From NCBI GenBank assembly GCA_034189005.1, contig JAXHVR010000009.1:11413-75412 (forward strand): a stretch of 64,000 bases of DNA. The letters run 5' to 3'. The position numbers were made by a program, and so were the translations under genes. Within the stretch, counting starts at the first letter, position 1, and the number at the start of each line of letters is the position of its first letter. This DNA is from Cyanobacteriota bacterium. Lineage in GTDB: Bacteria > Cyanobacteriota > Cyanobacteriia > Cyanobacteriales > Microcoleaceae. The notes beneath the pieces are model-generated. The model did not search any database. It saw only the letters and a list, made by a program, of their open reading frames with translations, and had not been told where the DNA came from. Below, piece after piece: positions 24,537-43,507 of this stretch.

Positions 24537-24576
24537 AGCCTACGAAGTTTACCCACAATTTTAGCCGTTCTGGCGC

Positions 24577-24682: not shown

Positions 24683-24685
24683 CTA

Positions 24686-25628: not shown

Positions 25629-25636
25629 AATTATTA

Positions 25637-27331: not shown

Positions 27332-27436
27332 CGGATTAAAGCCCCGGAATTTGAGCAGCTATTATTTTATCATTAATTTGAGCGAACGACAAAGTGCGGG
27401 ATGTAACGAATTAGTTATTGATGGGACAAGCTAGCG

Positions 27437-27525
27437 CTAGTAGTTTGCGTGCAGGGATTATGATAAGATTTGGAGCCAGAAACCCGGTTTAAGAAACCGG
27501 GTTTCTTAAATATCGCAAATGATTA
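27437..27525. mobile_element. diverged TATAGCAA-family element
   Basis: GTTTGCGTGCAGGGATTATGATAAGATTTGGAGCCAGAAACCCGGTTTAAGAAACCGGGTTTCTTAAATATCGCAAATGA. Confidence 0.65.
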
Positions 27526-27547
27526 TTTCTTCTATTCTCATATTAAA

Positions 27548-27805
27548 ATGACTACTCAACAATTACTAGATAAATGGCAAGCTTTAGACATCGACGAACG
27601 AGAACGAGTTTTAGCGTTTATTGACTCTATAGAACGCCAAAAGCAACAGAGCAAATCTACTTCTAGTTTAGGCAAAAAATTAAGAAAAATTCGCCAAGAC
27701 ATCATTAATTCAGGCATTCCTTTATTGACAGCAGAAGAGGTAGAAAGAGAGAAAGCAGAACGCCGTGGTGGTTATTTAGCACCAGTAGTATCGCCACGCA
27801 GCTAA
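27548..27805 (+). CDS. small antitoxin-like hypothetical protein
   Basis: Trimmed to MTTQQLLDKW because the upstream part of the ORF is MITE sequence. The ...EREKAERRGG tail resembles small cyanobacterial antitoxin-like proteins. The last codons run into a 132-bp palindrome. Confidence 0.4.
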   Translation: MTTQQLLDKWQALDIDERERVLAFIDSIERQKQQSKSTSSLGKKLRKIRQDIINSGIPLLTAEEVEREKAERRGGYLAPVVSPRS

Positions 27806-27923
27806 AATTGTGGGTAAAGCAAAAGTTTGTAGTAATCGCTTTAGCGATTCATAGATATCAATCGCTAAAGCGATTACTACAAGCAAGCCTACGAAGTTTA
27901 CCCACAATTTTAGCTGCGTGGCG
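27792..27923. repeat. 132-bp near-perfect palindrome built around the GTAGTAATCGCTTTAGCGATT double hairpin
   Basis: Outer arms are CGCCACGCAGCTAAAATTGTGGGTAAA / TTTACCCACAATTTTAGCTGCGTGGCG. The central loop is CATAGATATC. Confidence 0.9.
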
Positions 27924-28098
27924 CTAGTAGAGTGCGCGCCGCGCATCAGCACCATAATTCAAAGCGAACAACCGACACAGAATTAAATAAATCAACCTCG
28001 AACCTGAAAATTAATGTAATAATTTTGTGCGCGCCGCGCACCAGCCCAAACCTTTAAATTAATGTAATAATCTGGTGCGCGGCGCGCGCACTACTAGC
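27923..28098. mobile_element. ~176-bp element with GC-rich inverted termini GCTAGTAGAGTGCGCGCCGCGCA / TGCGCGGCGCGCGCACTACTAGC, abutting the ATG of the 1559-aa gene
   Basis: Three copies of GTGCGCGCCGCGCA(C/T)CAG (27932, 28027, inverted 28072) and two copies of ATTAATGTAATAAT (28010, 28058). Confidence 0.7.
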
Positions 28099-28100
28099 TT

Positions 28101-31100
28101 ATGAATTGCAAAGTTTGTCAATCTCAATCTCTTCCATTTGCCAGCGCTAAAATTTTAAACAGCAAATACAATATCCAATATTTTCAATGTCAAAACTGCG
28201 GTTTTATTCAAACTGAAGAACCTTACTGGTTAGGTGATGCTTATGCAAAAGCGATCGCCCCCAGCGATGAAGGTTTAATCTTTAGAAATTTGATGCTGGC
28301 GCAAATTACTAACAACATAATTAGTAACTTTTTTAGTCCCGAAGATAATTTCATAGATTTCGGCGGCGGTTACGGTTTGTTTGTGCGTTTAATGCGAGAC
28401 ATCCGCTACAACTTTTTCTGGCAAGATAAATATTGTCAAAATCTTTTCGCCGAGGGTTTTGAAGCCAAAGGCATTAGCTCTTATCAATTACTAACTGCTT
28501 TTGAAGTATTCGAGCATTTAGTCAATCCTTTGGAAGAAATAAAAGAACTCTTAAAATATTCCCCAAATATCCTCTTCAGCACCGAAATTATTCCACCAAA
28601 TAACCCAAAACCCGACGAGTGGCACTACTACGCCCTCAACGAAGGTCAACACATTTCTTTATATAGCCTTCAATCCTTATCAGTCTTAGCAGAAAAATTG
28701 GGCTTGAATCTCTACACCAATAATTCATCCATCCACCTGCTGACAAAAAAGAAAATATCTCAAGAATCTTTTGCAAAACAGTCTGAATATAACGCAGCAA
28801 AACTGAGACAATATTTGTGGCGATCGCGAGATTATCTAAAAACATTTGAACTCCTCAAAGCTACCGATAAAAAAACAAACATTCCCCAAACTCACTCCTT
28901 CGTCAGCCGGGAATTAGGAGTCAACGTCGCCGGTTTTGTTAAAGGAGAATTAGGCATAGGAGAAGGAGTAAGAGCAACAATTAGAGCCATAGAAACTACA
29001 GGCATTCCTTATGTCATTAATAACATCATCAGCACCCCCCACCGCAACTCAGATATTACCTATCAAGACAAATTTTCCCACGAAAATCCTTACCCCATAA
29101 ATATCTTTCAAGTCAACGCCCACGAAGTCAACACCTTTATGAAAAGAGGGGCGATCGAAAAATACTTTCCAGGGCGATATAATATCGGTTTTTGGGCGTG
29201 GGAACTTACTAAATTTCCCCCAGAATGGATGTCGGCTTTTGCACCGTTTAACGAAATTTGGGCTTACAGCAACTACTGCGTGGAATCAATTGCAGCGGTC
29301 TCGCCGATACCGGTTATTAAAATGATGCCCAGTATTTCTTTGCCGATGCCTTCTCTGGTCCGAGAAGATTTAAAATTGCCGCCAGATAAATTTATCTTTC
29401 TATTTATATTCGACTTTTTCAGCCATCTGGAACGAAAAAATCCCATCGCTACTATTAAAGCCTTCAAACAAGCTTTTGGGGAGAGTAACCCGGACGTTTT
29501 GTTAGTGATTAAATGTTCTAACTCGCAAAAATTTCCTGCCGATAGAGCGAGATTAATTGAAGCGATCGCCAACAGCCCATCTATTAAATTAATAGACGGT
29601 TATTTATCCAAAGATAAAATTAACGCCCTGCTCTATCACTGCAACTGTTATGTATCCCTGCATCGCGCCGAAGGCTTTGGTTTAACTATGTCGGAAGCCA
29701 TGTTTTATGGCAAACCAGTAATTGCTACTGGTTATTCTTCTAATATAGAATTTATGAACGTCGGCAATAGCTTTTTAGTCGATTACGAGAAAGTAGAAAT
29801 ATCTGGAAATTACGGACCTTACAAACGAGGAGATATTTGGGCAGAGCCCGGCGTCGAACATTGCGCCAATTTAATGCAATATGTTTTTAATAATTATCAA
29901 AAAGCCCAACAAGTAGGGGCGAGGGCAGCCAGGGAATTAAAGACTTTATTAAGCCCGGAGGCGATCGGGGAAAAAATTAAAAACCGTTTGGAATATATTG
30001 CTAAATTAACAGATAATTTCAGCAGCTTACCTCAACCGGGTTTAATCGCGCCATCCGGTTTTTCGTTATCCCAGAAACCCGGTTTTTTGAAAAAACCGGG
30101 TTTCTCGAAGGCAAAAAACCAACAGCCCTTAGTCAGTCTTTGCATCCCGACTTTTAATGGAGAAGCTTTTATTAAAGAAGCCCTTATAAGCGCTACTTCT
30201 CAGACATATCCAAATTTAGAAATAATCGTTGCCGACGACAGTTCCACCGATAGAACCGTCGAGATAGTCAGAGAATTTCAGCGAGAAAATCCCGCCGCTG
30301 ACTTGCGAATTATTCTGCATCGAAATTATGGTTTAGTCGGTAATTTAAACTTTTGCATCTCCCAGGGGCGAGGTAAATATATTAAGTTTTTATTTCAGGA
30401 TGACTTGTTGGCATCGAACTGCGTCGAGGAAATGGTTGAACTAGCAGAAAGCGATCGAGAAATAGGTTTAGTATTTTCTCCCCGGCGAGTGTTTTTAGAA
30501 CCTGGGGCCGAGTCGAATCAAACTTGTATGGCAGCATATCGAGGCACTCAAGATTTACATAAAGATTGGTCGAATTTAAAAACAGTTCAGTGGGGGAAAG
30601 AATTATTAATAGATGCTAATTGGATGATAGGTCGGTTGAATAAAATTGGCGAACCGACAACGGTTTTAATTCGCAAAGAAGTTTTTGATAAAGTAGGAGT
30701 TTTCGATCCTAGCCTGACTCAACTTTTAGATGTGGATATGTGGTTGAGAATTATGGGGAATTTTAAAATTGCTTTTGCGAAGGAAACTTTATCGCAACTG
30801 CGGGTCCATCCCCGCCAGCAAACTCAACTCAATCTAACTTCTGGGAAAAATACTGAAGATTATCAGCGGTTTTATCAGAAATTATTAGAGGATTCGACTT
30901 ATAGCTTTTTGAATCGGGAGCTTAAAGAAAAAGTAAGACGAAAATTAGGTATTAAATATGAATTGAATCTCTCCCAAATTTCAACTTTGGTTAAAGAGTA
31001 TCAAAAATCTCTGAGGAACGATTCCGCATTAATTAATCTGCGACAAGCTCGCTTGGAACTTGCGAAGAGATTGGTGCAACTCCCAGCAGAAGAGTTGAAA

Positions 31101-32780
31101 AAAAGTTATGGGTTGGAACTTGGTAAAATACATCAAGCTTTGGCAAGTTGCGGTCTGAAAAACGAACCCATGACCGAGGAAGAAAACCGGTTTTTTGCTC
31201 CCATCGCCGAGGGCGTGGCTAAAGGTTGGAATTCCCCGAACGCCTTGCAATATTTTTTAGCTTTTATTCTTTATAAGTATGCTTATCAGTTGCCAGTTAA
31301 TTACCAAAGGGCTCCCATACCGAGATGGTTGTTTTCTGATTTTCTGAAATTGATTTTCGAGACTCCTCTGAGCTTTCAGCAAAAAGAAGAATTAGAAAGC
31401 TATTGTCAATACCTGCAAGGTCTCATTCATTATATGAGAAGCAATGCTTTTACTAATACTAACCCAGAAGTCAGACAGAGTTTAGCTGCTTTTATTAAAA
31501 ATAATGTCAATTTAACTGGTTTGTATCTGAGGGATTTACCGTTGGGAGATATCCAGAAGCAGTTAGCCGATATCTGGGAGTTTGCTTTGCAAAACGAGGG
31601 GCATCAACTCGATTATAATTTTTCTGCAAAAACAGACATTCGCTCTCCCATTCGCCTCGGTATTTTGTTGGATAAATTAGGCGCTAACGAGCAGACTTTT
31701 GCCATTATTCCTATTATTAAATATTTATACCGACAAAAATTCGATTTAGTGCTTTATAATTTACAGGTAGAAGATGATAGCCTGGCCGATTATTGTCAAA
31801 AATTGCCAATTAACATAGTCCAACTCCCAAAAACCTTGCTGCAACAAGCTCAGAGGATACGCAGAGACGACCTCGATCTTCTCTGGGTTGGTGCGGAGCC
31901 GACGGCTCGCGCTAACCCTATCGCTCAGTTGGCCCTACATCGCCTAGCAAGAGTCCAGCTAACAACTGCCACAGTTGCCCCAGATACCACGGGCATCCGC
32001 AATATGGACTATTTCATTTTGGGAGAGTTAACATTGCCACTCCCCCCAGGACCGGGAAGCCCTCAGCAGTATCGAGAAGAATTAAAAGTAATTGGGGGCA
32101 GCGGTTTTTGTTTTGAATATCCCGTACAGACACAGCCAGAAGTTAAGCCGACTCGTCAGAGTTGGGGGGCATCCGCCGATACGATCGTTTTCGCCTCCGG
32201 TGCGGCCAGATCGAAAATTGGCCCGGAATTGAAAGAAGCGTGGGTGAAGATTTTAGGGGCAGTGCCGAACTCCGTATTGGTGTTGTATCCCTTTGGGGAA
32301 GGAACTTTCGATTATGCTCTGATGGTTTTATTTAAGCAAATGCGATCGCTTTTGGCCCGTTCTGGGGTTGACAAAAGTAGGTTAGTTGTGATAAAAGGGT
32401 TAAAGTCTAGTGCAGATGCGAGGGAGTGTTTGAAGCTTGCCGATGTTTATTTGGACTCGTTTCCCTGGAGCGGGGCTGCATCTTTAGTAGAACCATTATC
32501 AGAGTCCGTCCCAACCGTCGTAAAGGAGGGAGCAACTCCTAGAGGACGACAAGGCGCGGCCATGCTGCGAGAATTGGGAGTTCCGGGATTAGTGGCAGAT
32601 AACGAAAATAATTATATAAAATTAAGTATAGAATTGGGTCGCAATCGAGAATTGCGCCAATGGTACGGGGGACAGATCGAGCATAAAATGGCTGCTAATC
32701 CACAGTGGTTAGATGGCGGCAGTTATGCTGCGAAGATGGGAACCCTTTTAGAAAAGCTCGTTAAAAGAGGAATTAAATGA
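28101..32780 (+). CDS. 1559-aa multidomain protein: Zn-ribbon SAM-MTase, GT4, GT2, GT41 (SPY/OGT C-terminal)-like domain
   Basis: CKVCQS..CQNCGF Zn-ribbon plus an MTase fold. The GT4-like part reads YVSLHRAEGFGLTMSEAMFYGKPVIATGYS. The GT2 part reads LCIPTFNG..ADDSSTD..FQDDL. The C-terminus DSFPWSGAASLVEPLSESVPTVV..GRQGAAML resembles OGT/SPINDLY catalytic lobes. Confidence 0.82.
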   Translation: MNCKVCQSQSLPFASAKILNSKYNIQYFQCQNCGFIQTEEPYWLGDAYAKAIAPSDEGLIFRNLMLAQITNNIISNFFSPEDNFIDFGGGYGLFVRLMRDIRYNFFWQDKYCQNLFAEGFEAKGISSYQLLTAFEVFEHLVNPLEEIKELLKYSPNILFSTEIIPPNNPKPDEWHYYALNEGQHISLYSLQSLSVLAEKLGLNLYTNNSSIHLLTKKKISQESFAKQSEYNAAKLRQYLWRSRDYLKTFELLKATDKKTNIPQTHSFVSRELGVNVAGFVKGELGIGEGVRATIRAIETTGIPYVINNIISTPHRNSDITYQDKFSHENPYPINIFQVNAHEVNTFMKRGAIEKYFPGRYNIGFWAWELTKFPPEWMSAFAPFNEIWAYSNYCVESIAAVSPIPVIKMMPSISLPMPSLVREDLKLPPDKFIFLFIFDFFSHLERKNPIATIKAFKQAFGESNPDVLLVIKCSNSQKFPADRARLIEAIANSPSIKLIDGYLSKDKINALLYHCNCYVSLHRAEGFGLTMSEAMFYGKPVIATGYSSNIEFMNVGNSFLVDYEKVEISGNYGPYKRGDIWAEPGVEHCANLMQYVFNNYQKAQQVGARAARELKTLLSPEAIGEKIKNRLEYIAKLTDNFSSLPQPGLIAPSGFSLSQKPGFLKKPGFSKAKNQQPLVSLCIPTFNGEAFIKEALISATSQTYPNLEIIVADDSSTDRTVEIVREFQRENPAADLRIILHRNYGLVGNLNFCISQGRGKYIKFLFQDDLLASNCVEEMVELAESDREIGLVFSPRRVFLEPGAESNQTCMAAYRGTQDLHKDWSNLKTVQWGKELLIDANWMIGRLNKIGEPTTVLIRKEVFDKVGVFDPSLTQLLDVDMWLRIMGNFKIAFAKETLSQLRVHPRQQTQLNLTSGKNTEDYQRFYQKLLEDSTYSFLNRELKEKVRRKLGIKYELNLSQISTLVKEYQKSLRNDSALINLRQARLELAKRLVQLPAEELKKSYGLELGKIHQALASCGLKNEPMTEEENRFFAPIAEGVAKGWNSPNALQYFLAFILYKYAYQLPVNYQRAPIPRWLFSDFLKLIFETPLSFQQKEELESYCQYLQGLIHYMRSNAFTNTNPEVRQSLAAFIKNNVNLTGLYLRDLPLGDIQKQLADIWEFALQNEGHQLDYNFSAKTDIRSPIRLGILLDKLGANEQTFAIIPIIKYLYRQKFDLVLYNLQVEDDSLADYCQKLPINIVQLPKTLLQQAQRIRRDDLDLLWVGAEPTARANPIAQLALHRLARVQLTTATVAPDTTGIRNMDYFILGELTLPLPPGPGSPQQYREELKVIGGSGFCFEYPVQTQPEVKPTRQSWGASADTIVFASGAARSKIGPELKEAWVKILGAVPNSVLVLYPFGEGTFDYALMVLFKQMRSLLARSGVDKSRLVVIKGLKSSADARECLKLADVYLDSFPWSGAASLVEPLSESVPTVVKEGATPRGRQGAAMLRELGVPGLVADNENNYIKLSIELGRNRELRQWYGGQIEHKMAANPQWLDGGSYAAKMGTLLEKLVKRGIK
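30073..30105 (+). repeat. in-frame AGAAACCCGG-loop-CCGGGTTTCT hairpin in the GT4-GT2 linker of the 1559-aa protein
   Basis: Encodes QKPGFLKKPGFS. Confidence 0.95.
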
Positions 32781-32909
32781 GCGATCGCTATGATTAAATC
32801 CTCTAATATTGGCCATATTCGGGTGGAACCTGAAGCATTTAAAAGCGTCACAGGGTTCTCAGGGAGAAGGCAGGGGGCGCGTTGCTCCGATAATATACAA
32901 AAATAGTTT

Positions 32910-32964
32910 AACAATTAACAACTAACAACTAACAACTAACAACTAACAATTAACAATTAACAAT
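32910..32964. repeat. heptamer array (CAACTAA/CAATTAA)
   Basis: Period-7 repeat upstream of the PPIase gene. Confidence 0.9.
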
Positions 32965-33008
32965 AAAAAAAATAAGTTAGTGCTGGTGAAACGGGAGATG
33001 AAATAAGG

Positions 33009-33770
33009 ATGACAGAACTGTTTCAAGTAGGAGAGAAAATAGTGAAGGCAGAAGAAATACCAACGCTGTTAAAGCGGTATCAATTAATGCCTCATTTTTT
33101 GCGTGGATTGATAATAGATGACGCCATAGCCGATGTGACTTGCAGCGAGGAAGAAAAAGCGAAGGCTATGGAGCAGTTGATGGCGCAATATCAATTAACA
33201 ACGCCAGAGACTAAAGAAGCATGGTTAAAAAGCCAGGGTTTAACCGAAGAAGAATTAGAAGAAATAGCAGCGCGACCAGTAGCGATCGAAAAATTTAAAC
33301 AGGCAAAGTGGAGCAATAAAATAGAAAGGTATTTTCTCACGCGGAAAAGCAGTCTGGACAGGGTAGTATATTCTCTGATTAGAACCAAAAATTACAACTT
33401 GGCTCAGGAGCTATACTATCGGGTATCAGAAGGAGAACAGTCCTTTGCGGAAGTAGCCAGCAAATACAGCGAAGGCCCAGAGGCCAAGACGGGAGGTCAA
33501 TTAGGCCCGGTACCGTTGAGCCAGCCTCACCCGGCCATTAGCAAGATTTTATCCGTAAGTCAACCAGGGCAACTATGGGCTCCGAGGGGTTTGGCAGAAT
33601 GGAGCGTGATTATCAGGTTAGAAAAATTCATCCCAGCCCAATTGGACGAACAAATGCGACCGGCTTTAATAAACGAAATGTTTGAAACTTGGCTTCGAGA
33701 AGAAACAGCCAAGCTAGGAAATCTAGTGCTAAAGGAACGGGAAAAGTTGGAAGTGCAAATGAATAGTTAA
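33009..33770 (+). CDS. PpiC/parvulin-type peptidyl-prolyl isomerase
   Basis: FAEVASKYSEGPEAKTGGQLGPV parvulin signature. No obvious signal peptide. Immediately upstream of the T1SS ABC/HlyD pair. Confidence 0.75.
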   Translation: MTELFQVGEKIVKAEEIPTLLKRYQLMPHFLRGLIIDDAIADVTCSEEEKAKAMEQLMAQYQLTTPETKEAWLKSQGLTEEELEEIAARPVAIEKFKQAKWSNKIERYFLTRKSSLDRVVYSLIRTKNYNLAQELYYRVSEGEQSFAEVASKYSEGPEAKTGGQLGPVPLSQPHPAISKILSVSQPGQLWAPRGLAEWSVIIRLEKFIPAQLDEQMRPALINEMFETWLREETAKLGNLVLKEREKLEVQMNS

Positions 33771-33872
33771 GAAAATCGATGAGTCTCGGAATGTCGGTAA
33801 GATAGTCGCGACAATAAGCGAACAAAGACCGAGAGAACAAACAAGGTCTCAATTATAAAAAAAGAAAACTCG

Positions 33873-36800
33873 ATGGCTAGTTCGACAATTTCTAGGTTAC
33901 AGGTAGAGGAATTTCTGACAGAAAGGCATCCTTTCGATCGCCTTTCTCAAGAAACCCTAAAAAATTCAGTAGTAGGAAAGTGCCAGCTTTTGGGGTATAA
34001 GACGGGACAACCCCTATTCGAGCGAGACAAGATGCCCACGCAGATAGCAATAATCTATGAGGGGCAGGCCCGAGTATTGGGTTTAGACCAGCGATCGCAA
34101 CGAAACACGAGCTTGCAAGTAGTAGGGCCTGGAACCGTATTGGGTTGGGTGGGTGCCATCAGAGGTATTCCCTGCGAAACGGCGATCGCCTCGACGGATT
34201 TAATCGCCATAACCCTACCAGTAGAAGATTTCCTGGCATTAGTAGCAGCCGAGCCCGCCTTTGGGGAAGTATTCACAGACCATGCCTCCCCCATAGAAGT
34301 ATTCGAACTGCTAAGTGCAGAATTGGCAAGAAGGGCGGATATTTCGGTAAATACCAAAGAATACGCCAAAAAGATTTGGGAAGATACCGTTGTAGTCAAC
34401 CTGCAAGGGGGCAATAGAAAGGAAGAAGACCTGGCTAAGGCTTTAGACTCAGAAAAAGTTTGGCTCGTAAGCAGCGGGGTAGTAGGAGATTATCCCACGG
34501 GGAGCAGGTTAGCTCTCAATGGGTCGAATAAATCAATAAAAATAGAAGGCCCCAGGGGAGCGAGGTTAATAGGATTTCCCGAAGAATCTCAGGCCGCCGC
34601 AGCCCCACAAGAAGAAATAGCCGAAGAAACTACCAACGGTAATGGCAACGGAAAATTAGCAACGATAGATATCTCGAAGATTCCCGAAGCGCCAGCACGT
34701 CCGCCGGGCCCGACAGTAAAAGAAGAAGCACTCCAAAACAGTAAATACCCAGTAATAAGAGCTAAGGGAGATCTAGAGGGGCCTTTGGCTTGCTTCCAAA
34801 TGCTTGCCAAATATCTCAGGCTTAAGTTTCGCAAAGACGTAATTCGTCGAGTCCTGACAAATCAGTTGAGTAGCGCGGGCAGGATCTCGATGCAAGCTTG
34901 CGGGGCGATCGCTCAAATGATGGGATTGCAAGGCCAGCTAGTGCAAGTGCCGGCAATGTCGGTAAATCGACTAAGGGCCCCTGCCCTGATTCAATGGCAA
35001 GATGGCTTCGCGGTAATTTACAGCATTACCGAACAGGAAATAGTCTTAGCCAGTCCGGCACGGGGACTAGAGAGGCTAAAACCGGGGATGTTTGCGGAAA
35101 TTTGGGGCGAAATGGGTCAAATCCTGTTGCTGACGGCCCCAAGCAGCGAAGAAAAGGAGCAATTTAGCTTTTGGTGGTTCGTACCAGCCTTGATGGAACA
35201 TCGCACCGTCTTTATTGAGGTGTTGATTTCTTCCTTCTTCGTGCAGGTGTTTGGTCTGGTAAACCCGCTAATGACCATGATCATCATCGATAAAGTCATG
35301 GGCAACCGCAACATTGAAGCCCTAGATATGTTGGCCCTGTTGATGTTAATCGTGGCCCTATTCGAGGCCCTCCTCAGCGGTCTGCGTACCTTTTTATTCG
35401 TCGATACTACCAACAGGCTAGATGTAAAACTAAGCTCGGAGGTAATCGACCACTTACTGCGCCTGCCCCTGAACTATTTCGACAATCGGCGGGTGGGAGA
35501 TTTGACCGGCCGAATTGCGGAACTGGCTAATATCAGAAACTTCCTCACGGGTACGGCCTTGACGGTGGTATTAGATGCCATCTTCTCGGTGATTTATATC
35601 GCGGTAATGTTGGCTCTTAACCCATTAATGACGGCGGTGGCTTTAGCTGGGGTGCCGTTTTTTGCGGTGATTATTTTGGTCAACTCTCCCATCATCCAAC
35701 GACTGCTGCGGAAAAAAGCCGAACGTTATGCCGACTCTCAATCTTATTTGGTAGAAATTCTTAACGGCATCCAGACAGTAAAAGCTCAAAATTTGGAGTT
35801 GCGTTCTCGCTGGGAATGGTCTAGCCGTTACGCTCGTTTTATGACGGCGAGTTTTAATACAGTTCTGACCCAAACAACTGCCAGTTCTATTAGTAGCTTT
35901 TTGAATAAATTATCCGGTTTGGCCCTGCTGTGGGTGGGTGCTTATTTGGTCATAGACGGAAGCTTATCTGTAGGTGGATTGATTGCTTTTAGGATTATTG
36001 CCGGTAACGTGACGGGTTCTTTGCTTCGCTTCGTTAGCGTCTGGCAGAGCTTCCAGGAAGTAGGTATGTCGGTGGAACGCCTGCGGGACGTTTTGGATAC
36101 TCCAGGGGAGGTGGATGAGGAAGACCGAAATAATATCGATATGCCAGAGATTAAAGGGCAGGTGAAATTTGAGGAGCTTTCCTTCCGCTTTGGCGAAAGC
36201 GGACCTCTTCAACTGGCAAATGTAAACTTGGACTTCCCTGAAAATTCTTTTGTGGGAATTGTGGGTTTGAGCGGTTCGGGTAAGAGTACGTTGATGAAGT
36301 TATTGCAGCGTCTTTATAAACCGCTTTCCGGTCGGATTTTTCTGGACGGGTATGATATTCATAAGGTGGAATTGTATTCGTTGCGCCGACAAATAGGGGT
36401 GGTGCTGCAAGATACTTTGCTCTTTAACGGAACGGTGCAAGATAATATTGCTTTGTCTAATCCCGATGCTAGTACCGATGAGATTGTAAGGGCTGCGAAA
36501 ATAGCGGTGGCTCACGATTTTGTGATGAATTTGTCGGCTGGTTATAACACGGTGGTGGGGGAGAGAGGATCGAGTTTGTCTGGAGGACAAAGACAGCGAA
36601 TTGCGATCGCTCGTACGGTTTTACAAAACCCAAATATCCTGATTTTAGACGAGGCAACTAGCGCTTTGGATTACAGTTCCGAACGTCAGGTTTGCGATAA
36701 TTTGGCGGAGGCTTTTAAGGGTAAAACGGTGTTCTTTATTACCCACCGTTTGACTACGGTCAGAGGGGCAGATTCTATCATAATGATGGACCAAGGTTCT

Positions 36801-36887
36801 GTGGTGGAACAGGGAACTCACGAAGAATTAATGGCTCTAAAAGGTCGTTACTATTGCCTGTACCAACAACAAGAAGCGGAACAATAA
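33873..36887 (+). CDS. type I secretion ABC transporter: cNMP-binding domain, C39-like (apparently non-catalytic) domain, TMD, NBD
   Basis: N-terminal CAP_ED-like region. The C39-like region reads YPVIRAKGDLEGPLACFQML...LIQWQDGFAVIY...VLASPARG. The NBD has GLSGSGKST, LSGGQRQR and ILILDEATSALD. Confidence 0.9.
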   Translation: MASSTISRLQVEEFLTERHPFDRLSQETLKNSVVGKCQLLGYKTGQPLFERDKMPTQIAIIYEGQARVLGLDQRSQRNTSLQVVGPGTVLGWVGAIRGIPCETAIASTDLIAITLPVEDFLALVAAEPAFGEVFTDHASPIEVFELLSAELARRADISVNTKEYAKKIWEDTVVVNLQGGNRKEEDLAKALDSEKVWLVSSGVVGDYPTGSRLALNGSNKSIKIEGPRGARLIGFPEESQAAAAPQEEIAEETTNGNGNGKLATIDISKIPEAPARPPGPTVKEEALQNSKYPVIRAKGDLEGPLACFQMLAKYLRLKFRKDVIRRVLTNQLSSAGRISMQACGAIAQMMGLQGQLVQVPAMSVNRLRAPALIQWQDGFAVIYSITEQEIVLASPARGLERLKPGMFAEIWGEMGQILLLTAPSSEEKEQFSFWWFVPALMEHRTVFIEVLISSFFVQVFGLVNPLMTMIIIDKVMGNRNIEALDMLALLMLIVALFEALLSGLRTFLFVDTTNRLDVKLSSEVIDHLLRLPLNYFDNRRVGDLTGRIAELANIRNFLTGTALTVVLDAIFSVIYIAVMLALNPLMTAVALAGVPFFAVIILVNSPIIQRLLRKKAERYADSQSYLVEILNGIQTVKAQNLELRSRWEWSSRYARFMTASFNTVLTQTTASSISSFLNKLSGLALLWVGAYLVIDGSLSVGGLIAFRIIAGNVTGSLLRFVSVWQSFQEVGMSVERLRDVLDTPGEVDEEDRNNIDMPEIKGQVKFEELSFRFGESGPLQLANVNLDFPENSFVGIVGLSGSGKSTLMKLLQRLYKPLSGRIFLDGYDIHKVELYSLRRQIGVVLQDTLLFNGTVQDNIALSNPDASTDEIVRAAKIAVAHDFVMNLSAGYNTVVGERGSSLSGGQRQRIAIARTVLQNPNILILDEATSALDYSSERQVCDNLAEAFKGKTVFFITHRLTTVRGADSIIMMDQGSVVEQGTHEELMALKGRYYCLYQQQEAEQ

Positions 36888-36890
36888 AAA

Positions 36891-37049
36891 GTTGTTAGTT
36901 GTCAGTTGTTAGTTGTCAGTGGTTAGTTGTCGATAGAGGATTAACGATTGACAATTAACAATTAACAATTAAGCGGATAACAGGCGAGACGCCTGTTCTA
37001 CTAACAATTAACGATTAACAATTAACGATTAACTATATTAACAACTAAC
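36891..37049. repeat. composite: GTTAGTT-type array, CAATTAA/CGATTAA arrays and one AACAGGCGAGACGCCTGTTCTAC element
   Basis: Fills the whole ABC-HlyD intergenic spacer. Confidence 0.9.
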
Positions 37050-37059
37050 CAGAAAAAAT

Positions 37060-39237
37060 ATGGCACAGAATACGACGGCGAGTTTCGAGCAACCGGTAAT
37101 TTTAGAAAAGCCAGCGATTTTATCGCGGGTATTTATGTGGATAATTATGCTCGTAAGCGCCAGTTCAATAGTTTGGGCTTATTTCGCCGAGCTAGATCAA
37201 AACGTACCAGCAATAGGTCAACTAGAACTGAAAGACGGTGCGAGAGACGTTCAAGCGCCTACCAGCGGTACGGTGGTGAGACTTCATGTGGAAGGGGGCG
37301 ATCGCGTGGAAAAAAATCAGCCCATACTAACTTTCAGACCGACAATTCCTAAAGCAGATTTAGCTTCTCTGCTAGAAGTGAAAGAGGCCCTCGAAAAAGA
37401 AAATGAATTCTACGAAGATTTAGTCGAAGGAAGAATACGGCAAGGAGAGCGTCCCGATTTAGAAGCATTGGCCAAAGACCGCCAAGCGCGACAAGCAGAA
37501 ATAGATACTTACGAAGCTCTGATAAATCAGCTATATCGCAACTCTGGCAGAAGAATTAATATAGACTCCGGCCAGCGAGCGCTTTATGATAATGCCATAG
37601 CAGAATATAGCTCTAGGATAGGAGCAATTGAATTACAAATAGAAGAGCTGCAAAAACAATTGCAACAAGCCAGGCAAGAGGAAGAAGCGGCAAGAGATCG
37701 CTTGAGAGTGGCTCAAACTCAATTGGAATTTACCCGACAGCAAGTTCAATTCGCCCAACAACAATTAGACAATAGCAGGCAGCAAATAGTATTTGCTAAC
37801 GAACAGTTAGAGAACTCCAAGCAACAGTTAGAGTATGCGAAGGAACAGCTAGCTAATTCTCAGGAGCAATTAAAGTATTCAGAAGAACAATTACAACTGG
37901 CTAGAGGACAGTTTACGAAATCAGAAGAGGTTTTGCAGTCAAATCAGGAAATTTTAGATAATATTTCGCCACTGGTGGAAGAAGGAGCAATAGCTCAGTT
38001 GCAGCAAAAACGGCAGCAACAAGAAGTTATTCGAGGTGAAAGCGAATTATTAGGTCAGCGCGATCGCATAGAATCTCGTTCTGCAGAAATAAATACCAGA
38101 AGAGGAGATATTAATTCCCGCCGGGCAGAAATAAATAACCGAGAAGGAGATGTGACCGCCCGCCTGGCAGAAATTAAAAGGATAGAAGGAGATATTAATT
38201 CCAGACAAGCGGAAGTCAGTTCCCGTTTAGCTAGTATTAATAGCAGTGAAGGAGAAGTTCAAGCACTCCAAGCAGAAATTAGGCGCAATCAATTAGAACA
38301 AGAACGCATCGCTGTTTCTATAGAAAGAACTAGGGAACAGTTGCAAAATACCAAAGATTCTTGGGCGAGAGAGCTATATAACAGAATTGCCACTAATAAA
38401 ACGGCCCTCGCTGGCATAGATTCTCAGTTTAGCAGGCTACAACTGGATAATAAAAAAAGACTAACGGAGATGAACGCTCAAGTAGAAAAGCTGACAGAAA
38501 GCCGGAACGACCAAGTGTTAAAATCACCCGTATCGGGGATAGTATTCGATTTAACACCAGGAAGTAAAGAGGAATCTTCGTTAGATATAGGGAAAGACCC
38601 AATCTGTCAATATGTGATTAATGAAATTATAAAACCAGGAGATGTTAAGCCGAAAAAATGCGAGGAAGCTAATTATGAAGCGCAGCAAACGGAACCACTG
38701 CTAACAATTTTGGACGATGACGAAGGGTTGGAAGCAGTAGTTTATATTCAAAACAAGGATATAGCTTTAATATTGAATGCTTTGCGGGAAAAACGGAAAA
38801 CATTGGAACCGTTAGACGGTGAGGAGTTAGCTGGTGGGGAAGTAGTAGATTGCGAACCGGGTAAAAGTTGCGTTTGTCCCGAACTTAGGGAAAACCGAGA
38901 AAAGTTGGGAATAAACGACCTGCAATGCGTTCCAGTAGAGGTGCAGGTACAAGCTTTACCTGCTAATGAATTTGGTACCGTTGCAGGGGAGGTAATCTCT
39001 ATTAGTAAGGATGCCATACCACCGGACCCCCAGCAAGAAAGACCTTTCTTTTCTTTTGAGACTACCATTAAGTTAAGTCGTCAGACGGTGACTTTGGACA
39101 GGGAAAGCGATTTAGAGATTGCTCTGCAGAATGGCATGGCGGTTAATTCTAATATTAATGTCGGTAAGCGATCGGTATTAGAGCTATTCTTGAGCCGCTT
39201 TACCAGTAAGTTTAAGGGTTTGACTACTGTTAATTAA
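37060..39237 (+). CDS. HlyD-family membrane fusion protein with very long coiled-coil hairpin
   Basis: N-terminal TM, lipoyl-like GTVVRLHVEGGDRVEKNQPIL, two blocks of 14-residue repeats, and a C-terminal beta-barrel half (SPVSGIVFDL ... GMAVNSNINVGKRSVLE). Confidence 0.85.
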   Translation: MAQNTTASFEQPVILEKPAILSRVFMWIIMLVSASSIVWAYFAELDQNVPAIGQLELKDGARDVQAPTSGTVVRLHVEGGDRVEKNQPILTFRPTIPKADLASLLEVKEALEKENEFYEDLVEGRIRQGERPDLEALAKDRQARQAEIDTYEALINQLYRNSGRRINIDSGQRALYDNAIAEYSSRIGAIELQIEELQKQLQQARQEEEAARDRLRVAQTQLEFTRQQVQFAQQQLDNSRQQIVFANEQLENSKQQLEYAKEQLANSQEQLKYSEEQLQLARGQFTKSEEVLQSNQEILDNISPLVEEGAIAQLQQKRQQQEVIRGESELLGQRDRIESRSAEINTRRGDINSRRAEINNREGDVTARLAEIKRIEGDINSRQAEVSSRLASINSSEGEVQALQAEIRRNQLEQERIAVSIERTREQLQNTKDSWARELYNRIATNKTALAGIDSQFSRLQLDNKKRLTEMNAQVEKLTESRNDQVLKSPVSGIVFDLTPGSKEESSLDIGKDPICQYVINEIIKPGDVKPKKCEEANYEAQQTEPLLTILDDDEGLEAVVYIQNKDIALILNALREKRKTLEPLDGEELAGGEVVDCEPGKSCVCPELRENREKLGINDLQCVPVEVQVQALPANEFGTVAGEVISISKDAIPPDPQQERPFFSFETTIKLSRQTVTLDRESDLEIALQNGMAVNSNINVGKRSVLELFLSRFTSKFKGLTTVN

Positions 39238-39280
39238 TAGGTAATTGCTAGAGCAAGGGGCGCTGCCTCCGCACCTTGCA

Positions 39281-39430
39281 GGGTGCATCTCAATTTTGAA
39301 GAAAGCCAAAAATTAAACGCTTTTTGTTAGCGGTCAGTTGTTAGTTGTTAGTTGGACGGCTGACTACTAACTGCTAACAACTAACAAAAATTATTAATCT
39401 TTTGGTATTTTTACAAATATGAGATGCTCC
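39281..39430. mobile_element. MITE, GGGTGCATCTCA-TIR family, heptamer (GTTAGTT/AACTAAC) core, flanked by 9-bp direct repeat CACCTTGCA
   Basis: TIRs are GGGTGCATCTCA and TGAGATGCTCC. CACCTTGCA occurs at 39272-39280 and 39431-39439. Confidence 0.85.
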
Positions 39431-39567
39431 CACCTTGCATCCCAATTTTCCCGATGTTTTTTACCCCTGCCGTTTCTCCGGTGGGGGTATTTTTGTTGTA
39501 AACTATTGGCTATTAATTTAGCAACGGATGATGCTGGTGGATGTAACTATGGATGTTAGTTGTTAGT

Positions 39568-39664
39568 CGTAGATCGTTCGCGATATTGAAGACAAACCCG
39601 GTTTCTTTGAGAAACCGGGTTTCTGGCCTCCTAATTTTTCATAATCCCTGCACGGATTGCTATA
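39568..39664. mobile_element. TATAGCAA-family element, inverted, one end truncated
   Basis: CGTAGATCGTTCGCGATATT...GAAACCGGGTTTCTGGCCTCCTAATTTTTCATAATCCCTGCACGGATTGCTATA. Confidence 0.8.
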
Positions 39665-39745
39665 GTTGTTAGTCGTCAGTTAATTGGTTTTGCGCGGGCA
39701 ATTAGCAACTCCAAATTCTCAATTCCCAATTCCCGATTTTTAATA

Positions 39746-41518
39746 ATGCTTAAACATTTCCCCAGATTATCTGACAACAAAATACTTTTATTAATTCTCT
39801 ATATTCTCCCAGTTGCTCTACTTTTATGGTTCGTGGCTAGCTTTAGCGTTAACGTTCCTTTTTGGGACCAGTGGAGATTGGTAAATATGTTCGATAAAGT
39901 AGGCAGCGGCAATGCTAGTTTTTCGGACTTTTTTGAAGTTCACGGACACCACCGCATCTTTTTCCCAAAAATTATTATTACTGCCCTAGCTTTTGCTTCT
40001 GGATGGAATACTCAATACGAGATAATTTGCAGCGTTATTTTTGTGGTTATAACCTTTTGGTTCCTGTGCAAAATTGCCGCGAGTAAAACGCAAAATAAAG
40101 GCGATAATTTAATGCATATCGCCAATATTTTAACCTGTATGTTGCTGTTTTCTTTGGTTCAACATCAAAACTGGTTGTGGGGGTTTACGCTTTTTTGGTT
40201 TTTGACTAATTTATGTTTGGTAATGGCGGTGTTTTTTCTCTGTTGTAATGAGAAGCGATCCTGTGGGGGCGAACAGGGGAGGCACCTGTTCTACGCCGGT
40301 ACTTCCTGTTTTATCGGCAGCTTTACTTTAGCCCAAGGTTTGCTCGCTTGGCCGATTCTAATTCCAGCAGTTTTCTCTCTGGAAGGCAACTTCCGTCAAA
40401 AACTCAAAAGAGTTTTAATCTGGATGGGAATTTTTCTAGTTTCATGTTTCATCTATTCTCTTAATTACAACCCAATTCGCGAACCACAACCATTTTTATT
40501 TTTGGAACGACCTTTCGTAGTAATTAATTACTTTTTCACCGTTCTAAGTTTGCCTCTGGTGCGGGTTCCCATTCCTTCAATTATCGTCGGCTTTTTATTA
40601 TTCTCGTGTTTCCTATTTTTTTGTTTCTATTTTATAAGAATAAGAGGCAAGATGCTGGTTCTACATCCAGAGGCATTGCCTTGGTTGTCCGTAGGTTCCT
40701 TCGCCATCATCTCATCCCTTTCTATTACCGCAGGACGGGCCCAATACGGCGTAGAAAATGCAATTATTTCCTCCAGATATACCACGACATCGGTCTTATT
40801 AATCGTTGCTTTAATTCATTTATTGGCATTGTTTTGGCGTCAAAACTCTCTCTCGAATTCAATATTTACTATTGGTGCGGTCATTTTAACAGGTATTATC
40901 GCTGTAAACTCGATTTATGTTATTAACAGAATTAAAACAGAATTGCCTTATATGCAAGGTAGAAAAGAGTGCTTGGAAATTATTAATTATCTGGAAAAGT
41001 CTGAATTTATGCAAGAAGCGCCAGAGAGTTGTTTGGTATTATTAAACGGCAAAACTTGGTTGGTCAGAGAAGGGGCAGAAATTATGGATAAATTGGGATG
41101 GCGTGAATTTCCCGACGAGATGGAATTTGTTAGCACGCCAGAACGGGTTTATGGTTATTTGGATACGCCTCCAGATGGGTTGGGGGAAACAGGCAAGATG
41201 CCTGTTCTACGGAATGAGGCGGTAACTGTAACTGGATGGGCGACTATTCCAGAAAGGGAGGAAACGCCGAATTTAGTGTTATTATCTTCAGGGGAAAATC
41301 GAACTTTTTTTGCCAATGCTTATGTAGTATTAGACAGCCCCGATCTAGCTAAAACTTTAAAGTCAAAGGAATACAAAAAAGCGAGATGGCAAGCGGAGTT
41401 TTCGGGTAAAGATTTAGGAATGGGAGAGGGGGCGATCGCTGCTTGGGTATATAATGCCAAAGACAAGCAATTTGTTAAATTAAGCGACGAATTAAAAATA
41501 GAAGTTAAAAAGCCTTGA
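39746..41518 (+). CDS. polytopic membrane protein (GT-C-like?) with C-terminal GW/RPD-type beta-module
   Basis: About 12 hydrophobic segments and a soluble C-terminal ~120 aa (VTVTGWATIP...DSPDLAKTL). Same architecture as 44531..46309. Confidence 0.7.
   Translation: MLKHFPRLSDNKILLLILYILPVALLLWFVASFSVNVPFWDQWRLVNMFDKVGSGNASFSDFFEVHGHHRIFFPKIIITALAFASGWNTQYEIICSVIFVVITFWFLCKIAASKTQNKGDNLMHIANILTCMLLFSLVQHQNWLWGFTLFWFLTNLCLVMAVFFLCCNEKRSCGGEQGRHLFYAGTSCFIGSFTLAQGLLAWPILIPAVFSLEGNFRQKLKRVLIWMGIFLVSCFIYSLNYNPIREPQPFLFLERPFVVINYFFTVLSLPLVRVPIPSIIVGFLLFSCFLFFCFYFIRIRGKMLVLHPEALPWLSVGSFAIISSLSITAGRAQYGVENAIISSRYTTTSVLLIVALIHLLALFWRQNSLSNSIFTIGAVILTGIIAVNSIYVINRIKTELPYMQGRKECLEIINYLEKSEFMQEAPESCLVLLNGKTWLVREGAEIMDKLGWREFPDEMEFVSTPERVYGYLDTPPDGLGETGKMPVLRNEAVTVTGWATIPEREETPNLVLLSSGENRTFFANAYVVLDSPDLAKTLKSKEYKKARWQAEFSGKDLGMGEGAIAAWVYNAKDKQFVKLSDELKIEVKKP
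40271..40294 (+). repeat. in-frame GAACAGG..CCTGTTCTAC palindromic element (variant loop)
   Basis: GAACAGGGGAGGCACCTGTTCTAC inside CDS 39746..41518. Confidence 0.85.
41188..41210 (+). repeat. in-frame AACAGGCAAGATGCCTGTTCTAC element
   Basis: Identical 23-mer to 17044..17066 and 3357..3379. Encodes TGKMPVLR at the start of the C-terminal module. Confidence 0.95.
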
Positions 41519-41570
41519 CAGTTCCGCCAATATTTGTTTAAATTTTCTAGTGAAGCAATTGGGGTGGATT

Positions 41571-42008
41571 ATGACATTAATCGAAACATTAAAAGAAAAT
41601 CGGCTCATGCAAACAGAACGAGAAATTAATAGTTTTGAAACGGCATTAGCTGAAATTGCTAATAATCCCAATGAAGAAGATTTACCCAAATATCATTTAA
41701 TTCTGGACGATCGATGCCAACAACCCGAAGTAATGTTCGGTTTAGTTCACTTTCTGGAATCTTTTGAACCTGAAACTCAACTTCAAGCATTTATAAAAGT
41801 AATTCCTCAATTAGCGCTCGATGCTCCAGAATGGACCAAAATTTTACATAATCGTATTTTAAATGATGAATTTGCTTGTAATACTTATTTAAAAATTTTG
41901 CGATCGCTTAATTCAGAAAAGCCTCATTTTATTTATTATTTATTAGAAGAAAGTGCGGCAAATCATCTGAAGCGAGAATTGATTAGTATGTCAGCAGCAA
42001 ACCAATAA
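41571..42008 (+). CDS. hypothetical protein
   Basis: ORF preceded by a GGTGGA RBS-like element at the ATG at 41571. No motif recognised. Confidence 0.5.
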   Translation: MTLIETLKENRLMQTEREINSFETALAEIANNPNEEDLPKYHLILDDRCQQPEVMFGLVHFLESFEPETQLQAFIKVIPQLALDAPEWTKILHNRILNDEFACNTYLKILRSLNSEKPHFIYYLLEESAANHLKRELISMSAANQ

Positions 42009-42023
42009 TACCAACGAACAAAT

Positions 42024-42920
42024 ATGACGATCGCCAATTGCCCTATATGTCAATCTCCCGAATTTAGCTATTATCCAGCGGGGCAAAATTACACCTTAGC
42101 AAAATGTCGCCAATGCGATATGGTGTGGGATAATAAGCCCCCGGCAGAACCGACGGCAATCTATCAGGCTAATTATTATCAAAACGAAGGAGGTAAAGGA
42201 GGTTATTCCGACTATTTAGCAAGCATGAAAATGAATAGCAAAACATTTAACCGCCGCCTGGTAGCTGCCGGGAAAAAGTTAGGAGGCGATATTGCATCCG
42301 CAACGCTTCGCGAACGCCCTTTATTATTAGATGTCGGTTGCGCTTTGGGAGATTGTTTGTTAGAAGCAAAAAAATTGGGATGGGAAAAGCCTAGGGGTTT
42401 AGAAGTATCGGAATATGCGGTAGAATTTGCTCGCAGCAGAGACTTATTAGTATTCCAAGGAGACTTATTTAATCATTCTTTCCAGCCCAACTCTTTCGAT
42501 TTAATAACTCTCCAAGATATGCTAGAACATACCACAAATCCTCTATCTCAACTCGAAGCAGCTTATCAACTGCTAAAACCGGGGGGCTGGATTTTAATAA
42601 CTACTCCCAACGTGGATGGAATCTTAGCTAAATTACTCGGTTCTTTCTGGTATCATTACAAACCTGGAGAACACTTGACATATTTTTCGTTAAAGACTAT
42701 AAATATTGCATTAGAAAAGACTGGCTTTGTCGAGATAGAATCGAAACCTACCAGTAAATCTCTAAGCGTGGAATATATCTTGGACAGGCTGAAATATTAT
42801 CAACCTCAAGTATTCTCAATTTTGCTTAAATTAGCTCGGAAGTTAAATTTAGATCGATTAGTTTTTGAAGTGGGAACAGGGGAGTTAGAAGCGTGGGGAC
42901 AAAAACCGACAAATCGCTGA
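42024..42920 (+). CDS. Zn-ribbon class I SAM-dependent methyltransferase
   Basis: CPICQS..CRQCDM, motif I LLDVGCALGD, and LKPGGWILITTPN. The stop TGA lies in the loop of an AATCGCTGAAGCGATT hairpin repeat. Confidence 0.8.
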   Translation: MTIANCPICQSPEFSYYPAGQNYTLAKCRQCDMVWDNKPPAEPTAIYQANYYQNEGGKGGYSDYLASMKMNSKTFNRRLVAAGKKLGGDIASATLRERPLLLDVGCALGDCLLEAKKLGWEKPRGLEVSEYAVEFARSRDLLVFQGDLFNHSFQPNSFDLITLQDMLEHTTNPLSQLEAAYQLLKPGGWILITTPNVDGILAKLLGSFWYHYKPGEHLTYFSLKTINIALEKTGFVEIESKPTSKSLSVEYILDRLKYYQPQVFSILLKLARKLNLDRLVFEVGTGELEAWGQKPTNR

Positions 42921-42958
42921 AGCGATTACTACGAACAACGAACAACTAATAATTAACT

Positions 42959-43507
42959 ATGAACGTAATTAAAACAGAAATACCAGATGTTTTATTAATC
43001 GAACCCAAAGTTTTTGGGGACGATCGCGGCTTCTTTTTTGAAAGTTTCAACCAGAAAAGTTTCTCAGACAAAACAGGAGTAAATCTTGACTTCGTTCAAG
43101 ACAATCATTCCCGTTCTGTCAAGGGAGTTTTGCGAGGTTTGCACTACCAAATAGAACAAACTCAAGGTAAGTTACTCAGAACAGTTGTCGGAGAAATATT
43201 CGATGTCGCCGCAGACATTCGCAAAAATTCTCCAACCTTTGGCAAGTGGGTAGGTTATATGCTAACTGCGGAAAATAAACGACAACTTTGGATACCGCCG
43301 GGTTTTGCCCACGGTTTTTTAGTAGTATCTGAAGTGGCGGAAGTTTTGTACAAAGCGACGGATTATTACGCGCCGCAACACGAACGTTCTATTCTTTGGA
43401 ACGACCCAGATATTGGCATTGAGTGGCCGATAGAAGGGATAACGCCAATTTTATCTAAAAAAGACGAAGCAGGTAAAACATTTAAAACAGCGGAAATATT
43501 TGAATGA
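42959..43507 (+). CDS. rfbC: dTDP-4-dehydrorhamnose 3,5-epimerase
   Basis: FGDDRGFFFESFN..VQDNHSRS.KGVLRGLHYQ..QGKLLRTV.GEIFDVA.DIR..SPTFGKW..WIPPGFAHGF is a classical RmlC. Confidence 0.93.
   Translation: MNVIKTEIPDVLLIEPKVFGDDRGFFFESFNQKSFSDKTGVNLDFVQDNHSRSVKGVLRGLHYQIEQTQGKLLRTVVGEIFDVAADIRKNSPTFGKWVGYMLTAENKRQLWIPPGFAHGFLVVSEVAEVLYKATDYYAPQHERSILWNDPDIGIEWPIEGITPILSKKDEAGKTFKTAEIFE

Follow-up and report, generated by a model that had tools for sequence, protein, structure and literature searches.

The open reading frame (ORF) at positions 33873..36887 of a 64,000-nucleotide stretch of a Microcoleaceae genome (Cyanobacteriota bacterium, assembly GCA_034189005.1, contig JAXHVR010000009.1, positions 11,413 to 75,412 of the forward strand; hereafter the window) is likely to encode the inner-membrane ATP-binding cassette (ABC) component of a cyanobacterial HlyB-type type I secretion system. 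Its C39-like domain lacks all three catalytic residues of C39 peptidases, and its N-terminal module has the fold of a cyclic-nucleotide-binding (CNB) domain with a phosphate-binding cassette that departs from the canonical one. We read this module as regulatory and as lacking canonical binding of cyclic AMP (cAMP) or cyclic GMP (cGMP), since its pocket is strongly conserved but remodelled (Trp92, Arg97, Cys101 and Glu102). The architecture itself is no discovery, the gene being one ordinary example of the type I secretion cassette that is standard in cyanobacteria. The remaining interest lies in a probably misannotated sensor pocket, in a near-universal peptidyl-prolyl isomerase (PPIase) partner, and in a link to oscillin-type surface glycoproteins.

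Domain anatomy of the exporter

The gene and its domains are listed below by window position.

33873..36887 (+): type I secretion ABC exporter gene, ATG start, 1004 amino acids
33900..34277 (+): CNB-fold domain (CAP/PKA-type beta-roll), residues about 10-135 (Pfam cNMP_binding; AlphaFold2 predicted local distance difference test, pLDDT, >90; Foldseek)
34125..34196 (+): remodelled phosphate-binding cassette, residues 85-108, GPGTVLGWVGAIRGIPCETAIAST (alignments to MloK1 and T. thermophilus CRP)
34278..34592 (+): helical connector and second small beta subdomain, residues 136-240 (AlphaFold2 pLDDT about 90)
34593..34739 (+): disordered linker rich in Pro, Ala, Glu and Asn-Gly, residues 241-289 (pLDDT 29-39)
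34740..35147 (+): C39-like domain, residues 290-425 (Pfam Peptidase_C39; PCAT1 and HlyB alignments)
35169..36095 (+): ABC exporter transmembrane domain, residues 433-741 (Pfam ABC_membrane; long helices in the AlphaFold2 model)
36162..36887 (+): nucleotide-binding domain (Pfam ABC_tran; motif positions)

The ATG start at 33873 is sound, since close homologues align from residue 1. From there the protein runs through the CNB-like domain, a small beta subdomain, the linker, the apparently dead C39-like domain, a six-helix membrane domain and the ATPase. Four Pfam matches, all above their curated cut-offs, cover this order: cNMP_binding at residues 42-125 (35.8 bits; cut-off 27.5), Peptidase_C39 at 293-422 (39.0 bits; cut-off 22), ABC_membrane at 448-713 (160 bits) and ABC_tran at 781-930 (116.9 bits). 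The ATPase motifs are intact, comprising a Walker A motif (GLSGSGKST from 798), a signature motif (LSGGQRQR from 902), a Walker B motif with the catalytic Glu927, and the H-loop His958. AlphaFold2 modelled the whole exporter with a pLDDT of 76.9 and folded both N-terminal domains, CNB-like and C39-like, confidently; the linker between them is poorly conserved and shows the highest entropy and most gaps of the alignment. Such a domain architecture is not unusual and is standard for cyanobacterial type I secretion ABC proteins.

Loss of the C39 catalytic triad

The C39-like segment (residues 284-437) was aligned by phmmer to PCAT1 (4ry2) and to its C21A mutant (7n87), which marks the nucleophile column. 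The catalytic Cys corresponds to Gly303 (E-G-P-L-A-C; codon 34779-34781), the His to Gly378 (D-G-F-A-V-I-Y; codon 35004-35006) and the Asp to Ser394 (L-A-S-P-A-R-G; codon 35052-35054). An alignment to HlyB runs two residues off this register and places the HlyB His on Ala380; in neither register do residues 376-382 contain a His, and no Cys or Asp lies close by. A first-pass annotation of this DNA, made from the sequence by eye, had described a C39-like domain that had lost its Cys, His and Asp, reading the motifs as E-G-P-L-A-C, G-F-A-V-I and A-S-P-A-R-G. The PCAT1 alignment bears out both the loss and the motif reading: the protein passes the Pfam cut-offs for Peptidase_C39 and cNMP_binding, and the catalytic columns are devoid of Cys, His and Asp.

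The same holds for the relatives. The Cys column contains Cys in none of 120 close homologues (mostly Gly or Ala), none of 63 representatives of 50% identity clusters (mostly Glu, Ala, Ser or Gly) and none of 50 GTDB species, and a regular-expression scan of all 468 retrieved proteins returned no canonical catalytic-Cys motif. The family His column is mostly Ser and the Asp column mostly Ser, Thr or Val. Because the triad columns are degenerate across the homologues, loss of all three catalytic residues is a family norm and not specific to this gene. We predict from these alignments that the domain is catalytically dead. One homologue (P0228) suspected of being a C39-active relative was rejected, as it falls in the picocyanobacterial clade of the dead-domain family. 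Several Okeania spp. loci (L014, L015, L024, L047 and L056) retain a relic His at the catalytic position ('QWQDHFAVLY') with the Cys gone, a vestige that marks an active C39 peptidase as the ancestor.

Assignment to the HlyB type

Family models place the exporter with HlyB. It passes NCBIfam TIGR01846 (type_I_sec_HlyB) over residues 304-1000 by a narrow margin (730.3 bits against a cut-off of 725.55) and falls below the bacteriocin model TIGR01193 (392.8 bits against 523.85). HlyB is the best PDB match by sequence (7sgr, E=2e-170) and also the top fold match for the AlphaFold2 model of the full-length protein, which combines, as HlyB-type exporters do, a C39-like domain without the catalytic Cys and intact ABC ATPase motifs. 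These results, together with the gene for a probable HlyD-type adaptor next door, uphold the annotation's view that this is an RTX exporter of the HlyB type and not a bacteriocin-type one.

The HlyB protein of the E. coli HlyB/HlyD/TolC system (7sgr, 8dck) is the best solved homologue, with about 40% identity over residues 309-1000. It resembles the exporter in its inactive N-terminal C39-like domain; its HlyD-type partner and its RTX cargo would have their counterparts in the probable adaptor and the most likely cargo here. HlyB lacks the CNB-like module, the linker and the PPIase partner, whereas the exporter has all three, and the adaptor encoded here is about 250 amino acids longer than HlyD, with an extended coiled coil. 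In addition, HlyB has lost only the Cys (Tyr there) and keeps the His and Asp, while the exporter has lost the entire triad.

An alternative is that the protein is a leader-cleaving, bacteriocin-type (PCAT) exporter of a double-glycine peptide, comparable to HetC or CvaB. The Pfam Peptidase_C39 match would fit this, as would the behaviour of the C39-like domain in isolation, which finds its match in the peptidase domain of PCAT1 but not in the isolated HlyB domain; PCAT1, ComA and CvaB are also alike in overall fold and in the position of the C39 fold relative to the membrane domain. However, those proteins cleave double-glycine leaders with an active Cys-His-Asp triad, for which the exporter has Gly, Gly and Ser, and the three residues are missing in every alignment register. 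The TIGR01193 score lies far under its cut-off, the full-length protein is nearest to HlyB, and the conserved neighbour is an RTX protein without a double-glycine leader. We give this alternative next to no chance; the sequence has in effect refuted it already. HetC from Nostoc sp. PCC 7120, another cyanobacterial protein, has by its authors' description the same order of cNMP-binding-like, C39 and ABC exporter domains, but it keeps the catalytic Cys347 and His420 and has protease activity (PMC10986499); the exporter lacks the counterparts of both residues. Furthermore, HetC has no adaptor gene adjacent to it, and its role is in heterocyst differentiation.

A CNB fold with a remodelled pocket

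Residues 1-245, modelled with AlphaFold2 from a 25-sequence alignment, reached a pLDDT of 92.8 and a predicted template modelling score of 0.87. The model consists of a CNB beta-roll (38-116) with a cassette helix (92-97), connecting helices and a second beta subdomain (173-236). Foldseek matched this module to PKA regulatory subunits, CRP-family regulators and the CNB domain of SLC9C1, and the closest superposition was with PKA RI-alpha CNB-B (1.7 A over 121 residues). The beta-roll and cassette helix are common to the canonical CNB domains of CAP/CRP, PKA-R, MloK1 and HCN, and the structural glycines G45, G64 and G91 are conserved. The second subdomain (residues 136-245) has no Pfam match; Foldseek suggests no more than a loose resemblance between it and the second CNB domain of PKA regulatory subunits, at high root-mean-square deviation, and its invariant residues are E142, W197, S200, G210 and R231. 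The CAP-type cyclic-nucleotide-binding domain that the annotation had placed at residues ~10-125 is thus genuine as a fold, by Pfam, AlphaFold2 and Foldseek.

The canonical contacts are a different matter. In the cassettes of CAP, PKA and MloK1, a Glu contacts the ribose 2'-OH and an Arg contacts the cyclic phosphate. Aligned to MloK1 and T. thermophilus CRP, the cassette of the exporter reads GPGTVLGWVGAIRGIPCETAI against the canonical GPGAFFGEMALISGEPRSATV, or in outline G-W...P-C-E-T against G-E...R-[ST]-A. Trp92 (34146-34148) stands at the position of the Glu, and Cys101-Glu102 (34173-34178) stand at the positions of the Arg-Ser/Thr pair.

These replacements are highly conserved. W92, C101, E102 and T103 occur without exception in the close homologues (120/120); in a set of 58 sequences that includes picocyanobacteria, W92 and E102 are invariant and C101 is present in at least 90%. 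The Synechocystis, Nostoc and Picosynechococcus copies have "CETAIAST" in common, and the cassette is the best-conserved (lowest-entropy) segment within the N-terminal 300 residues. A degenerate DNA pattern for the GW…PCETAIAST motif, scanned over 185,579 genomes (one per GTDB species), returned 65 loci. Sixty are cyanobacterial, all of them near the N-terminus of an open frame that is mostly full-length (about 1000 amino acids), and the other five are chance matches in short frames. Fixed as it is across the family, the replacement does not represent recent decay. The database label "cNMP-binding" on these exporters is probably misleading, because the ligand contacts have been replaced by different, strongly conserved residues.

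What, then, might this pocket bind? The only ABC exporter with this domain architecture for which biochemical tests have been reported is HetC, and our search for literature on the cNMP-like domain of such exporters found only the HetC paper. Neither cAMP, cCMP and c-di-GMP nor 2-oxoglutarate produced a thermal shift in the HetC N-terminal region; the region binds GDP, GTP and ppGpp, the last weakly (dissociation constant 59 uM), and the cNMP-like domain is essential in vivo (PMC10986499).

The annotation had suggested that the activity of the exporter may be gated by cAMP or cGMP, which would bind to the N-terminal CNB domain. Such gating would be in keeping with the genuine CNB fold, with a cNMP_binding match above the cut-off, and with a dCache-HAMP adenylate/guanylate cyclase gene located 20 kb upstream (11451..13574). 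The cassette tells against it: Trp92 has taken the place of the Glu, Cys101 that of the Arg, and the acidic Glu102 stands where Ser or Thr is expected, a replacement that is fixed family-wide. The HetC region is negative for cAMP, cCMP and c-di-GMP, and the cyclase gene is paired with a CNB-bearing MscS channel of its own, outside the conserved island. We consider cAMP or cGMP gating very unlikely. The phosphate-binding cassette, without which the annotation itself would have given up this idea, persists as a scaffold, but its key Glu and Arg-Ser/Thr have been replaced, and as a canonical binding site it is essentially absent.

Strong constraint acts on the pocket, and its ligand is probably something else, either a non-cyclic nucleotide or a peptide partner. 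Our best guess is a non-cyclic nucleotide, possibly of the guanine type, such as guanosine tetra- or pentaphosphate ((p)ppGpp), with a protein or peptide partner as the alternative. Two cautions apply to this proposal: the ligand we suggest is speculation, and a non-canonical cassette leaves room for some atypical mode of cyclic-nucleotide binding.

Alternatively, the domain could have no small-molecule ligand at all, its pocket being filled by a peptide of the transporter, the cargo or the PPIase, so that it would serve for docking or autoinhibition. KCNH channels, with their CNB-homology domains, offer a comparison. It is conceivable that a pocket which has lost its canonical contacts, yet is highly conserved, has been given over to a peptide; the cytoplasmic PPIase gene is nearly always adjacent, and the long disordered tether would fit a mobile docking module. 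Against this, the HetC N-terminal region binds guanine nucleotides, albeit weakly. We regard a peptide-filled pocket as possible but rather unlikely.

Returning to a regulatory module with a ligand of its own, we suggest with equal reserve that the GW...R...PCETAIAST pocket is a cyanobacteria-specific sensor derived from a CNB domain, responding to (p)ppGpp or GTP, at which the HetC results hint, or to the redox state of the conserved Cys101, and that it couples type I secretion of surface glycoproteins to a signal together with a dedicated cytoplasmic PPIase of the parvulin type, whose part would be to maintain the glycosylated RTX cargo in a secretable state. If true, this would amount to regulated, chaperone-assisted type I secretion, a variant that we found described nowhere outside the HetC paper.

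As a separate observation, the cyclase gene (11451-13574, +) ends 7 nt before the MscS-type channel gene (13581-15017, +). The channel has a C-terminal CNB domain (61 bits) with a cassette that, judged by eye, keeps the Gly-Glu ('FGEMALL') and has Ser at the phosphate-binding Arg. We rejected it as a canonical control from within the window, since a cassette without the Arg is not a clean one.

Relatives and the Synechocystis counterpart

Filamentous cyanobacteria (Microcoleaceae, Trichodesmium, Okeania, Dapis, Lyngbya and Microcoleus) supply the 120 best homologues, which show 66-97% identity and all have the identical domain set; NCBI names the close ones "peptidase domain-containing ABC transporter". 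The architecture is also the same, at about 40% identity, in homologues from marine Synechococcus, Prochlorococcus and Cyanobium. Nostocales loci L020, L051, L057 and L072 belong to the dead-domain type and are not HetC. In Synechococcus and Cyanobium (L018, L021 and L035), open frames of more than 1130 amino acids raised the possibility of a PPIase-ABC fusion, which we rejected because the extensions are GC-rich read-through with no similarity to PPIases; the real start is an internal Met.

A cluster look-up identified a "HlyB family" protein from Synechocystis PCC 6803, BAA18265.1 (1011 amino acids), that is 51% identical over residues 12-1002 and presumably corresponds to Sll1180. Its Pfam architecture is identical (CNB-like, C39-like, ABC_membrane and ABC_tran), its catalytic triad is likewise absent (Ala, Ser and Val there), and the 'PCETAIAST' stretch is the same, although it has Asp in place of Trp92. 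By end-to-end homology, domain order, the dead triad and a PCETAIAST-type cassette, the exporter groups with Sll1180 through BAA18265.1. In the Synechocystis system, Sll1180 works with the adaptor Sll1181 and the TolC-like Slr1270, and the cargo is the RTX S-layer glycoprotein Sll1951. The exporter is a further member of a genetically studied family, and its domain combination is already present in public annotation. The gene sll1180 has been described as a toxin-secretion ABC transporter (UniProt P74176; PMC6045555), and the title of Agarwal et al. 2018 names Sll1180/Sll1181 as components in the type I secretion of the RTX S-layer protein Sll1951 (cited in PMC11594277). The cargo classes of the two systems would be alike, both being glycosylated RTX surface proteins, but differ in size: the oscillin-like candidate here has 684 amino acids, compared with 1741 for Sll1951.

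The PPIase-ABC-adaptor operon

Two genes and a hairpin accompany the exporter gene.

33009..33770 (+): PPIC (parvulin)-type PPIase, cytoplasmic, 253 amino acids (Pfam Rotamase 39.2 bits; no signal peptide)
37060..39237 (+): probable HlyD/AprE-type membrane-fusion (periplasmic adaptor) protein, 725 amino acids (Pfam HlyD_3; partial TIGR01843)
39462..39489 (+): terminator-like hairpin with 11 pairs, 7 of them G-C, and a T-run (consensus match only)

The PPIase gene ends 103 nt upstream of the exporter gene, and a homologue lies upstream on the same strand in 46/49 cyanobacterial species loci that came from the motif scan and had enough flanking sequence. The adaptor is similarly constant, with a homologue downstream of the exporter gene in 20/23 loci. 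Annotations of the plasmids pCC7120alpha and pAQ7 show the PPIase-ABC-adaptor order as well. The PPIase gene of Prochlorococcus overlaps the start of the ABC gene, and an RTX gene and Rml genes are found nearby. The three genes look like a portable cassette set beside different putative cargos. Their order, nearly universal in cyanobacteria and found also on plasmids with different cargos, points to a little-studied accessory factor that folds or holds proteins for type I secretion. Our literature search found no PPIase partner for type I secretion.

The adaptor has an N-terminal membrane helix followed by about 380 residues of coiled coil rich in Gln, Glu and Arg, and its homologues carry a Beta-barrel_AprE match. 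The E. coli HlyD protein is far shorter; the length of the coiled coil may be related to the distance across the periplasm and peptidoglycan of cyanobacteria. The hairpin at 39462..39489 is the probable end of the PPIase-ABC-adaptor operon, to judge from its match to the terminator consensus.

Candidate cargo and the glycoprotein island

The first 47 kb of the window form one surface glycan and glycoprotein island. The parts of it that bear on the exporter are as follows.

22264..24318 (+): candidate cargo, oscillin-like RTX protein, 684 amino acids (Pfam HemolysinCabind 141.9 bits)
28101..32780 (+): multidomain glycosyltransferase with methyltransferase and family 1, 2 and 41-like glycosyltransferase (GT1, GT2 and GT41-like) domains, 1559 amino acids (Pfam)
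39746..41518 (+): polytopic membrane protein, 590 amino acids (hydrophobic sequence; no Pfam or NCBIfam match)
42959..44382 (+): dTDP-sugar isomerase (RmlC-like) and reductase (RmlD-like) genes (identity to Lyngbya and Microcoleus genes)

The RTX protein at 22264..24318 is most likely the exporter's cargo, as far as gene content and order can indicate; it would be a calcium-binding glycoprotein of the cell surface. No other ORF in the window is rich in RTX repeats. The protein has an isoelectric point of 4.05, 19% Gly and 16 nonapeptide repeats, and lacks a signal peptide. It belongs to a family of 610-690 amino acids in the Oscillatoriales, one member of which, deposited as 'Oscillin', shows 45% identity across 81% of the query. 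Glycosylated RTX surface proteins of this phylum include Oscillin, SwmA and Sll1951 (PMC3034196).

Gene order supports the same pairing. In Lyngbya sp. PCC 8106 the order matches the window across 22264..44382, beginning with an RTX protein (705 amino acids), a 304-amino-acid protein, a methyltransferase/glycosyltransferase and a multidomain glycosyltransferase with a GT41-like domain. It continues with the PPIase, the CNB-like/C39-like ABC protein, an AprE/HlyD-type adaptor and a 589-amino-acid membrane protein, and it ends with RmlC, RmlD, RmlA and a GT2 glycosyltransferase. The core order of the island recurs in Microcoleus, Dapis and Prochlorococcus. Lyngbya, Microcoleus and others also keep a counterpart of the 1559-amino-acid glycosyltransferase upstream of the PPIase gene, and this enzyme probably glycosylates the cargo. 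Homologues of the 590-amino-acid membrane protein lie directly downstream of the adaptor in Lyngbya and Microcoleus (L001 15205-16974; L003 15388-17091), and the Rml-like genes are 74-79% and 66-72% identical to Lyngbya/Microcoleus genes with the domains dTDP_sugar_isom and RmlD_sub_bind. The first-pass annotation had nominated 22264..24318 as candidate substrate; its acidity, the absence of a signal peptide, its being the only RTX ORF and the Lyngbya synteny all favour that choice while falling short of proof.

Several observations weigh against a simple pairing of this exporter with this cargo, or against parts of the system as we describe it. The assignment of the cargo draws on synteny alone, and Microcoleus has no RTX gene within 10 kb of the cassette. 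The pCC7120alpha and pAQ7 cassettes adjoin non-RTX proteins that are putatively secreted, namely an ExeM/NucH nuclease, a PPC-domain protein and a haemagglutinin-like protein; the cassette is evidently modular, and the cargo could differ or be multiple. The adaptor matches TIGR01843 only partially, at 121.9 bits and below the cut-off of 208.65, and no TolC-like gene was seen among the window ORFs scanned, several smaller ORFs having been left unscanned. Finally, the equation of BAA18265.1 with Sll1180 is a presumptive one that goes by a matching length and name.

Proposed mechanism and implications

We propose that the exporter operates with the adjacent HlyD-type adaptor and an unlinked TolC-like outer-membrane channel. 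The cargo might be glycosylated in the cytoplasm by glycosyltransferases of the island, and the PPIase may hold or handle it there. The dead C39-like domain would most likely dock or tether the unfolded cargo as in HlyB, with no cleavage of a leader; the docking role of the HlyB domain is attributed to Lecher et al. 2012 (as cited in PMC10986499). ATP hydrolysis at the intact nucleotide-binding domain would power export, and the cargo would leave through the ABC protein, the adaptor and the TolC-like channel. The CNB-like module, which makes up the N-terminal 240 residues and is joined by the disordered tether, could modulate this process.

The island ties an oscillin-like RTX protein, of a kind implicated in gliding motility, to the machinery that probably glycosylates and exports it. 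It thereby provides a concrete genetic handle on the making of glycosylated RTX surface proteins.

Other features of the window

An ORF for Imm30 (polymorphic-toxin immunity protein 30; 41550-42008, +; 119.9 bits) sits between the conserved membrane-protein gene and a methyltransferase gene and has no counterpart in the syntenic loci L001-L006. Further upstream, a giant enzyme of 2077 amino acids (4662-10895, +) unites a sulfotransferase and a long coiled coil with several GT2 domains and one GT1 domain. The window also carries Wzt (1887-3302) and further sulfo- and methyltransferases.

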